From a plasmid: a stretch of 1,549 nt of DNA. Of the stretch, positions 1 through 933 are shown piece after piece; position 1 is the first letter of the stretch, and every line of letters starts with the position of its first letter. The DNA is taken from the NCBI RefSeq assembly GCF_988243305.1, contig NZ_OZ547142.1; one strand, 5' to 3'. The notes beneath the pieces were generated by a model. That model searched no databases, had not been told where the DNA came from, and worked only from the letters and a program-made list of their open reading frames with translations. The position numbers and the translations under genes are program-made.

Positions 1-196
1 CACTGGTCAACAAAGACGGTGATATTCAGCGCCGAATCATGGCCATGTTTTCAAATTGAGCTAGCGGCAGGCGGACAATCAGGGGCTACGTGTTAACGTT
101 CTGACCATGATTGTCTATCCTGCATTGCTCTTTTGCCGCCTCAAAATCCTTTGCGTGTTTTTGCTCCCCGTTCTCCAGAAAAAACCGAGCCGCCAC

Positions 197-250
197 GGTT
201 CCGGCAGCGCCTTGAGCGCTACCGGAAACCGTCTGGGGAGAACCCCAGAC
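197..250 (+). other. Two adjacent GC-rich hairpins in the non-coding region
   Basis: Hairpin A: TTCCGGCAGCGC (199-210) pairs with GCGCTACCGGAA (216-227), 11/12 with a C205/A221 mismatch, loop 211-215. Hairpin B: GTCTGGGG (231-238) pairs perfectly with CCCCAGAC (243-250), loop AGAA. Confidence 0.5.
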
Positions 251-326
251 CCCCATCGCTGCAACACCGACGGTCTACGACCACCTACCAACCGCATGGC
301 TGCCTGTTCCGTGCAAATGGGCTTTG

Positions 327-350
327 CAGGGGGCTGGCGCGGTTCCTGGC
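327..350 (+). other. Candidate ColE1-type origin motif (G-run plus GGTTCCTGGC), i.e. possible RNA primer to DNA transition region
   Basis: CAGGGGGCTGGCGCGGTTCCTGGC shares CAGGGGG and the 10-mer GGTTCCTGGC with the pMB1 ori region (...GTCAGGGGGGCGGAGCC...ACGGTTCCTGGCC...) in the same orientation as the two stronger matches downstream. Spacing differs from pBR322, so this is tentative. Confidence 0.25.
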
Positions 351-524
351 GACCTGAAAGCCCCTGGTTAGGGGTATCGGCGCGCTTGACCTCCTGAGAG
401 CCTCTGTAAGCGTTTTTCGCGCCTTCCATGCCCTGGCGGGCATCTAAAACCCGTTTCGTGCGTCTGAGAGCTTTTGAGCGCGTTTGAGGGGCTATCTGGC
501 GACTCATCCCCAAAAGAACAACAC

Positions 525-558
525 CGGGATCACAGACAACATGCGAGAGGTGATCCCG
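525..558. other. Hairpin (9-bp stem, 16-nt loop) abutting the conserved backbone segment
   Basis: CGGGATCAC (525-533) pairs perfectly with GTGATCCCG (550-558). Confidence 0.5.
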
Positions 559-626
559 CTCGCCGCAAGTCGATGACCGAGCGTAGCGAGCGAATCGACG
601 AGGAAGCGGAAGAGAACCGGAAGCCA
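551..626 (+). other. Conserved ColE1-family origin-distal backbone segment (region where pMB1-type plasmids carry primosome assembly sites)
   Basis: TGATCCCGCTCGCCGCAAGTCGATGACCGAGCGTAGCGAGCGAATCGACGAGGAAGCGGAAGAGAACC aligns by eye at about 75% identity to the reverse complement of the pUC/pBR322 stretch ...CTTCCGCTTCCTCGCTCACTGACTCGCTGCGCTCGGTCGTTCGGCTGCGGCGAGCGGTATCAG... That orientation is RNAII-sense. Confidence 0.55.
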
Positions 627-680
627 CATTGAGCACTTACGCACTGATGCGGGGTGTCGGGGTGAAGCCCTGACCAAGTG

Positions 681-727
681 GTAATCGTATCGGCGTGCAT
701 GCGCGGTTATACGATTACACATCCTGT
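681..727 (+). other. Perfect 10-bp inverted repeat followed by a CATCCTG|T motif (IncP/MOBP-type nic consensus YATCCTG|Y); candidate relaxase recognition site
   Basis: GTAATCGTAT (681-690) and ATACGATTAC (709-718) are perfectly complementary, with an 18-nt spacer containing GCATGC. CATCCTGT at 720-727 begins 2 nt after the proximal arm, putting the putative nick (726/727) 8 nt from the repeat. An 8-mer of this kind can occur by chance. Confidence 0.3.
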
Positions 728-839
728 CCCGATTTCTGAGGCGTTTTAACGGTGAACGGACGGCAAAAACACGATGGAGCTGTTGAACGTGAAAACCACG
801 AAATCTGGCAAAAATCACGGCTGGCGAGGCTTGCATAGG

Positions 840-902
840 TGTAAGCCAGTATACACTCCGCTATCGCTACGTGACTGGGTCAGGGCTTCGCCCCGACACC
901 CC
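840..902 (-). other. ColE1/pMB1-type bom (oriT) nic region homolog; predicted nick on the minus strand
   Basis: The + strand GCCAGTATACACTCCGCTATCGCTACGTGACTGGGTCAGGGCTTCGCCCCGACACCCC (845-902) is near-identical to the pBR322 bom segment as I remember it (GCCAGTATACACTCCGCTATCGCTACGTGACTGGGTCATGGCTGCGCCCCGACACCC). The complementary strand carries ACTGG|CTTA, which I recall as the ColE1 nic sequence; this places the nick between the complements of 846 and 845. Confidence 0.6.
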
Positions 903-904
903 CA

Positions 905-933
905 AAGGGCGTTGCGTGCAACGCAACGCCCTT
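905..933. other. Perfect hairpin / 29-bp near-palindrome (13-bp stem, 3-nt loop) at the module junction
   Basis: AAGGGCGTTGCGT (905-917) pairs base-for-base with ACGCAACGCCCTT (921-933), loop GCA 918-920. No U-tract follows on either strand (GCCTAGAATAG on +; TGGGGGTG on -), so it is not a canonical intrinsic terminator. Confidence 0.6.

Follow-up and report, generated by a model that had tools for sequence, protein, structure and literature searches.

Organization of the plasmid

The window, by which we mean the whole stretch of 1549 nucleotides analyzed here, is a complete circular plasmid of the Col(MG828)/pKL1 type; over its full length, it is 99.5–99.7% identical to many 1549-bp plasmids of E. 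coli, Klebsiella, and E. fergusonii typed as Col(MG828). Its only consistently annotated gene encodes a helix-turn-helix RepA (Pfam HTH_36), which starts at 1132 and wraps round the circle to about position 59. Half-site repeats of TGTCGCATCC occur near repA at 999–1046, and the sole IHF-like match in the window lies at 963–975; both fit the reported placement of the pKL1 oriV upstream of repA, with several Rep-binding sites and an IHF box (PMC3832669). pKL1 itself (NC_002145.1) is among the plasmids that match the linker described below, at 99.2%, and the cryptic pKL1/Col(MG828) plasmids of E. coli, of about 1.5 kb, resemble the window in size, in linker, and in possession of a single helix-turn-helix RepA, with no material difference.

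Much of the plasmid belongs to a module of approximately 800 bp (window 100–905) that is shared, at 84–100% identity, by plasmids with very different rep genes and rep-upstream regions. The best-conserved DNA of the plasmid, window 201–550, has no Pfam or Rfam match and no consistent annotation. Comparison with CP058086 is instructive: this plasmid is 98–100% identical to the window over 201–550 and 1251–1500, but only 62–88% identical over 551–600, 651–850, and 1051–1250. Such a pattern points to mosaic plasmids, among which the oriT segment and the rep-upstream segment would have been exchanged by recombination.

A database search with window 640–910 splits this region into three parts: 650–735, a middle stretch, and 842–901. 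The first has its matches in large conjugative plasmids of the I-complex; in the IncK2/Z plasmid pSCU-116-1, the match is of 91.9% over 86 bp, in intergenic DNA directly adjoining a nikA-like gene (annotated as mobA) and a relaxase gene. As in the oriTs of R64 and the I-complex plasmids, it carries an outer small hairpin (GTCGGGG..CCCTGAC) and a 17–19-bp inverted repeat, here of 19 nt at 681–718, that ends 8 nt before ATCCTG/T (slashes denote nicks or junctions throughout); the nick core, ACATCCTG/T at 719–727, thus conforms to the YATCCTG/Y of this oriT type. From the nick regions of R64 and RP4, we take the nick to fall at 726/727 on the + strand, after ATCCTG. Two differences from I-complex plasmids are apparent, however: neither nikA nor nikB is present in cis, and similarity to these plasmids is lost on the 3′ side of the nick after position ~742.

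The third part, 842–901, has thousands of matches in small plasmids at 91–100% identity, including one of 100% over 60 bp to the ColE1-like plasmid L006, a carrier of RNAI and rop. Read on the – strand, this ColE1-type oriT runs ...GTATACTGGCTTAC and ends in ...GTATACTGG/CTTAC, with two hairpins adjoining nic in the predicted fold. Presumably the nick lies at 846/845 on the – strand, on the assumption that ColE1 nic, CTGG/CTTA, is cleaved at the same place here. The expected hairpins are recovered for both oriTs, with folding z-scores of –2.48 (I-type) and –1.44 (ColE1-type). The arms of a 29-nt inverted repeat bound this double oriT; the original prediction of a repeat-bounded segment was sound, and the arms are 93% complementary. 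Neither oriT is accompanied by a relaxase gene on this plasmid.

We infer both the nick positions and the polarity of transfer from sequence. Because the two oriTs face each other and transfer runs 5′ to 3′ from the nick, the 119-nt linker between them would lead from both nicks, and would be the first DNA to leave from either one. The features of the region are collected in Table 1.

Table 1 Features of the double oriT region and positions in the 1549-bp window
Feature	Positions	Strand	Remarks
Putative ssi/primosome-assembly-like element, ColE1 type	556–614		contains GAGGAAGCGGAAGAG
I-complex (R64-like, MOBP) oriT cassette	651–742	+	assigned by homology and by hairpin and inverted-repeat layout
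Left arm of 29-nt inverted repeat	651–679		outer element of the I-type oriT
Linker between the facing (inferred) nick sites	727–845		119 nt
Motif copy 1, AAAAACACG	765–773	+	inside GGCAAAAACACG, 762–773
Motif copy 2, AAAACCACG	792–800	+	inside GAAAACCACG, 791–800; least conserved copy
Motif copy 3, AAAATCACG	811–819	+	inside GGCAAAAATCACGG, 807–820
ColE1-type (MOBHEN/MOBP5) oriT/bom	832–902	–	assigned by homology; – strand reads GGGTGTCGGGGCGAAGCCCTGACCCAGTCACGTAGCGATAGCGGAGTGTATACTGG/CTTAC
Right arm of 29-nt inverted repeat	874–902		outer element of the ColE1-type oriT

Several further observations concern the oriTs themselves. An outer element common to both, GGGTGTCGGGG, occurs at 651–662 and, in inverted orientation, at 891–902. 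It closely resembles the CloDF13 nic, GGGTG/GTCGGG (PMC5935869), and in principle either arm might itself be nicked. The inferred ColE1-type nick is also flanked by a short, conserved inverted repeat, GGCTT...AAGCC at 828–847, and no other stem recurs when the linker alignment is folded. At the position of the NikA-type inverted repeat (window 676–720; 1066–1160 in L058, which is CP058086; 1060–1150 in the relative L061), the family carries three very different versions, GGTAATCGTATCGG..., GGCAAACGGAATATCG..., and GGGGAATGTCTGAG..., which are only 75–81% alike; the oriT to which each is 92–95% identical belongs to a separate set of 80–120-kb conjugative plasmids. This variety looks as if helper specificity were being exchanged while the scaffold stays fixed. 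Elsewhere in the plasmid, window 73–133 contains an inverted repeat (74–84/105–115) followed directly by TATCCTG/C, a perfect IncP-type nick core; the segment is conserved across the family and matches intergenic DNA of IncX4 conjugative plasmids at 85%, in two places per plasmid, making it a candidate third oriT.

Origin of the linker

Relatives without the I-type oriT illustrate how the present arrangement may have come about. In two plasmids with RepL-type replication genes, L064 (pER24y-8ksm) and L065, window ~655–742 is missing as one block of about 88 bp, although the linker and the ColE1-type nic are both present. The empty-site junction reads CTGATGCGGGG/CGTTTTAGCGGTGAACGG..., that is, ...CACTGATGCGGGG/CGTTTTAGCGGTGAACGGACTGCAAAAACATG... 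(CTGATGCGGGG/CGTTTTAGCGG), and is found at 700–716 in L064 and at 115–131 in L065. Since the block is absent as a unit, and since homology to I-complex plasmids stops at its boundaries, the I-type oriT is best understood as a cassette of ~88 bp in a pre-existing stretch of DNA. It behaves as a discrete unit within a ColE1-type ssi–nic linker, although precise loss of the cassette in L064 and L065 would be an alternative account of the same junctions.

The other end of that stretch would be the element at 556–614, which is 82% identical to L006 1348–1406. In L006, this segment sits roughly 80–140 nt past the oriV, a position estimated from RNAI at 714–814 and the usual RNA II length of ~555 nt, and 95 nt before the nic homology. 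An ssi adjacent to oriV is a known feature of ColE1-like plasmids (PMC5935869). Taken together, 556–614 and the linker may represent the ancestral ssi–linker–nic arrangement of the ColE1 type, with a putative role in priming for the former; its predicted fold is unremarkable (z-scores of –0.9 and –0.65). Thousands of plasmids contain homologues of window 540–640, ColE1-like plasmids (just past oriV) and IncI2 plasmids (in intergenic DNA) among them, and window 396–611 matches intergenic DNA of IncX4 plasmids near the rep gene. The stretch shared within 396–614 contains AAGCGG, consistent with a primosome assembly site of the PriA type or an ssi site.

What fills the space between ssi and nic differs among plasmids. 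In the ColE1-like plasmids L006 and L007, the I-type oriT is elsewhere, beyond rop, and the ssi–nic linker is pMB1-like and unrelated in sequence to that of the pKL1 family. Comparison of the window's linker with I-complex leading DNA and with the pMB1-type ssi–nic linker, by blastn and by eye, detected no homology. Given that similarity to I-complex plasmids ceases after ~742, the region that carries the motif is not part of the I-complex oriT; rather, it lies in the pKL1 family's own version of the variable ColE1 ssi-to-nic linker.

The motif cluster and its conservation

The original prediction described three AAAA-N-CACG direct repeats between an IncP-like motif and a ColE1-type nic, and the sequences and positions it gave are exact. 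Their placement also holds, with all three copies between ATCCTG (721–726) and the ColE1-type nic region (842–850), but the supposed IncP-like core turns out to belong to the I-complex/R64-type oriT described above. Scanning the whole window with the pattern AAAANCACG returned these three matches on the + strand, and a fourth, inverted, on the – strand at 154–162: four matches where 0.06 are expected, a number reached in 0 of 200 shuffles. As the pattern was picked after inspection of the sequence, a look-elsewhere test was run that asks for any 9-mer with one wildcard in three non-overlapping same-strand copies within 60 nt. By this measure, the window scores three copies, through the AAAA-N-CACG motif, and was matched by one in 1000 dinucleotide-preserving shuffles. 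The cluster is real and non-random within the plasmid sequence. Its copies lie on one strand and span 57 bp, with irregular start-to-start spacings of 27 and 19 nt, and the third is 26–34 nt from the inferred ColE1-type nick.

The fourth match merits separate comment. GCAAAAACACG, at window 152–162 on the – strand, is the exact 11-nt inverted counterpart of copy 1. This inverted copy is kept in most relatives regardless of the state of copy 1, with no co-variation, and we reject a link between the two on the ground of that independent conservation; the resemblance is probably coincidental.

Conservation was judged across plasmid records and 48 metagenome contigs, which together yielded 24 distinct linker sequences; the metagenome search pattern was anchored on both nick cores rather than on the motif. 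Matches to the linker came from 512 plasmid records, almost all of 1.3–1.9 kb, and on this evidence it is restricted to the pKL1/Col(MG828) family of small plasmids, where it is common to plasmids with different rep genes. Only 96 of the 512 carry a linker at least 95% identical to that of the window. Within the shared module, 751–800 is among the most variable parts, at 58–90% identity in whole-plasmid comparisons; the same alignments give 84–100% for 201–550 and 92–100% for 851–900.

The motif fares poorly in this comparison. All three copies are present in just three of the 24 variants; 15 have one copy, and three have none. Copy 1 reads AAAAACACG in three variants, AAAAACATG in nine, AAAAACGTG in six, and AAAACCATG in five, and is partly deleted in one, so that its CACG is usually replaced by CATG or CGTG while its A-tract is retained. 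Copy 2 is equally often AAAACCACG and GAGAGCGCG (eight variants each), and otherwise GAGAGCGTG (four), GAGAGCGAG (two), AAAACCTCG (one), or GAGAGCATG (one). Copy 3 is the only one to be mostly conserved, as AAAATCACG in 19 variants, with AAAATCACA in three and AAAATCATG in two. The A-tracts of copies 1 and 3 persist in all 24 variants, and that of copy 2 is lost in 15. The conserved parts of the linker are accordingly the A-tract of copy 1 (GGCAAAA) and the copy 3 block (CAAAATCA..GCT). Averaged over the 27 motif columns, the majority fraction is 0.898, against 0.935 over the other 84 linker columns, figures of limited statistical power because the variants, drawn from close and mosaic relatives within a young family, are not independent samples. 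The distance between the search anchors is 110–111 nt in 22 of 24 variants, within the 95–120 nt that the metagenome pattern permitted. Two natural variants are shorter by 8 or 12 bp between copies 1 and 2.

These data bear most directly on the proposal that the copies bind a relaxosome accessory protein supplied by a helper, whether NikA-like or MbeC/MobC-like, or else a host factor. Chance would very rarely place three same-strand copies within 57 bp, the copies are located in an oriT region, and copy 3 is conserved, all of which would suit a binding site. Yet a reading of the three copies as a functional set fails, because so few variants keep them all and the motif columns are less conserved than the remainder of the linker. 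The original prediction had named conservation in related oriT regions as the check on its binding-site suggestion; that comparison finds the motif not conserved, and the suggestion did not survive it. Moreover, the motif is absent beside nic in the I-complex helper L008 and in the linker of the ColE1-like L006, its spacing is irregular, and neither the IHF consensus (WATCAANNNNTTR) nor the DnaA consensus (TTWTNCACA) occurs within one mismatch in 727–846. NikA is known to bind at repeat A, which lies on the trailing side (PMC4743918). We consider binding at the copies very unlikely.

Predicted curvature of the linker

The second suggestion of the original prediction was an A-tract bending locus. 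Four A- or T-tracts lie in or near the motif: T4 at 747–750, A5 at 765–769, A4 at 792–795, and A5 at 810–814. We estimated curvature with a wedge model using Bolshoy-type parameters, and its values are indicative only. On this footing, predicted curvature peaks at ~46 degrees per 30 bp at 750–755, between the T4 tract and the first A-tract, and reaches ~30 degrees across 785–820, relative to a plasmid mean of 18 ± 11. The peak, of 39–60 degrees, is retained in 24 of 24 variants.

Might the A-tracts then give the DNA between the nicks an intrinsic bend, or make it easy to bend, in a way that aids the assembly of one or both relaxosomes? The retention of the peak and of A-tracts 1 and 3, and curvature above the plasmid mean, would be in keeping with such a role, for which RP4 offers a precedent: its TraK protein binds an intrinsically bent region beside nic. 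The RP4 oriT thus resembles the present linker in having A-tract DNA beside nic, on the leading side, and could serve as a model for a bend-assisted relaxosome. We know of no TraK-like partner in I-complex or ColE1 systems, however, and the predicted bend of the pKL1-type linker, as distinct from that of RP4, is modest and unphased. The peak falls outside the motif cluster and is independent of both the CACG parts and copy 2. Other segments of the plasmid (151–200, 451–500, and 1501–1549) attain 45–56 degrees in the same model, and a control of phased A-tracts attains 81 degrees. Measured between tract starts (765, 792, and 810), the spacings are 27 and 18 bp (27 and 19 when counted between motif copies), which are not multiples of 10.5 bp, and the two conserved tracts are 45 bp apart, or ~4.3 turns, and so out of phase; in the deletion variants, this distance is altered to 33–37 bp. 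Finally, the known recognition elements of both oriT types are on the other side of each nick. An assembly-promoting bend is therefore unlikely in our estimation. With regard to the bending suggestion, A-tracts 1 and 3 are conserved, but the tracts are not helically phased, and the predicted curvature is moderate, with its peak outside the cluster. Such bend as the model predicts in the linker would be modest and motif-independent, and differs from the feature originally described.

Other possible functions of the linker

Were the linker to enter the recipient ahead of all other DNA, it might fold as single-stranded DNA into a priming or promoter signal, with the repeats as stems. Leading regions of conjugative plasmids do carry such single-stranded priming and promoter signals, and, from the presumed polarity of transfer, the linker would lead from both nicks. 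Its folding was assessed for single sequences and by alifold, with RNA and DNA parameters. The single-stranded fold is no better than those of shuffles, with z-scores of –0.32 and +0.93 for the two strands and of –0.5 and +0.9 in a second run, and alifold on both strands of the 24 variants found no consensus structure, with a covariance term about zero or unfavorable. The repeats, moreover, are direct rather than inverted, and the plasmid already has an ssi-like element of ColE1 type at 556–614. The prospect of a single-stranded signal here is remote.

A part in replication is scarcely plausible either. The copies could be imagined as RepA iterons, or as another part of the pKL1 origin, given that this oriV was reported upstream of repA with several Rep-binding sites. 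But the linker is common to plasmids with unrelated or highly diverged rep genes and rep-upstream regions; relatives that are 82–100% identical to the window over 801–900 are only 10–50% identical over 901–1549. The obvious repeats near repA are the TGTCGCATCC half-sites, and the one IHF-like match also lies well apart from the linker, at the positions given above.

Nor does the region appear to encode a protein, a reading to which we assign next to no chance. Two open reading frames do occur in the window here, at 774–944 on the + strand and 504–836 on the – strand. Neither has a Pfam domain, no record examined annotates either across the motif region, and relatives fail to preserve their starts or frames, on which grounds we reject coding by either: the ATG at 774 is lost in pJJ1886-type variants (ACGTGCAGG), an 8-bp deletion in a Shigella flexneri relative shifts the frame, and the – strand start (CAT at 834–836) is CAG in most relatives. 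Scanned against Rfam at E ≤ 1, the whole window gave only a spurious match to a eukaryotic long noncoding RNA, elsewhere in the plasmid. No sigma-70-like promoter was found in the window, and a manual check of both linker strands likewise found none.

Comparison with known plasmids

More than one oriT was present in about 12% of the oriT-bearing E. coli plasmids of one survey (PMC10123127). A close parallel is pBuzz, a cryptic plasmid of 1982 bp with two inversely oriented oriTs that is reported to be mobilized by a B/O plasmid (Moran & Hall 2019, cited in PMC9282650 and PMC11389934). pBuzz resembles the pKL1-type plasmid in being tiny and relaxase-less, with two opposite oriTs from I-complex-type conjugative plasmids, and in being mobilized in trans; it differs in using rolling-circle replication and in having two related copies of oriT. 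The pKL1-type plasmid, unlike pBuzz, has oriTs of two families (I-complex and ColE1-type) that face each other across 119 nt, and replicates by way of a helix-turn-helix RepA.

A second parallel is the ColE1-type plasmid pEC156, whose oriTs are of R64 type and F type; by way of the R64-like one, ~93 bp long and without nikAB, the plasmid was experimentally mobilized by R64 (PMC4743918). By analogy, it may serve as a precedent for function of the 651–742 cassette. In pEC156, however, the partner oriT is F-type, the two oriTs are not convergent, and there is no equivalent of the linker or the motif. As for ColE1 and pMB1 themselves, their bom has a nic and inverted-repeat region that is 91–100% identical to that of the window, and a homologous ssi-like element in the same relative order. 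The pKL1-type linker differs from theirs in being unrelated in sequence and interrupted by the I-type cassette, and an Rfam scan finds no ColE1 RNAI/RNAII origin in the pKL1-type plasmid. In the searchable literature, we found neither a description of the pKL1 oriT linker or motif nor an experiment on the linker. The architecture of the window is nonetheless known in kind, and nothing in it departs from known kinds.

Interpretation

In our assessment, with a probability of roughly 0.7, the three copies are a real quasi-repeat of a pKL1 sub-lineage, in a fast-evolving linker that is probably non-specific, and not a set of functional sites. The plasmid encodes only RepA, and its transfer would depend on helper plasmids acting at oriTs in cis. 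Linker 727–845 is the family's version of the variable stretch between a priming site (ssi/pas) and the bom nick, with an I-complex oriT cassette of ~88 bp inside the ssi–nic stretch, pointing toward the ColE1-type nic. Recognition by relaxases and accessory proteins would take place on the trailing side of each nick, at the inverted repeats in 651–726 and 847–902; with the recognition elements on these outer sides, the sequence of the linker would be largely free to drift. Similarity among the copies would have been produced by local mutation, possibly templated. Copy 2 differs from its commonest alternative, GGAGAGCGCG, at four alternating positions out of ten, and we speculate that it grew alike to copies 1 and 3 through a clustered, possibly templated, change. 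Most likely, the motif is not a real feature in the sense of a functional element, an absence of function that we infer from the comparisons above.

Some findings sit uneasily with a linker that is spacer alone. The cluster is statistically unusual in the plasmid sequence, and so some local process or selection must have produced it. In addition, copy 3 and A-tracts 1 and 3 are largely or wholly kept, the length of the linker is near-constant, and its curvature in the wedge model exceeds the plasmid mean. It is conceivable, if quite improbable, that a bend or host-factor site shared by both relaxosomes is made up of both GGCAAAA A-tracts and the copy 3 block AAAATCACGGCTG, set within a linker of near-constant length. 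Were such a shared architectural locus to exist, one short spacer would tune mobilization by two unrelated helper families, and the pKL1 lineage would have strengthened the locus by gaining extra CACG copies through templated mutation.

Under the quasi-repeat reading that we favor, the lesson is that a local repeat may be statistically striking, and lie in an oriT region, without being a functional site; here, some 500 relatives place the repeat in one sub-lineage. A by-product of the analysis is a map of a 1.5-kb plasmid with a single gene, repA, in which a Rep/ori module is joined to a portable module of ColE1-type priming site and bom, with the I-complex oriT as a cassette inside the latter. 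This layout fits the notion of oriT-only "hitcher" plasmids that exploit several helpers. For mobilization of these very common E. coli plasmids, the bases likely to matter are those at 651–726 and 847–902, and those of the linker between them are likely to be spacer.
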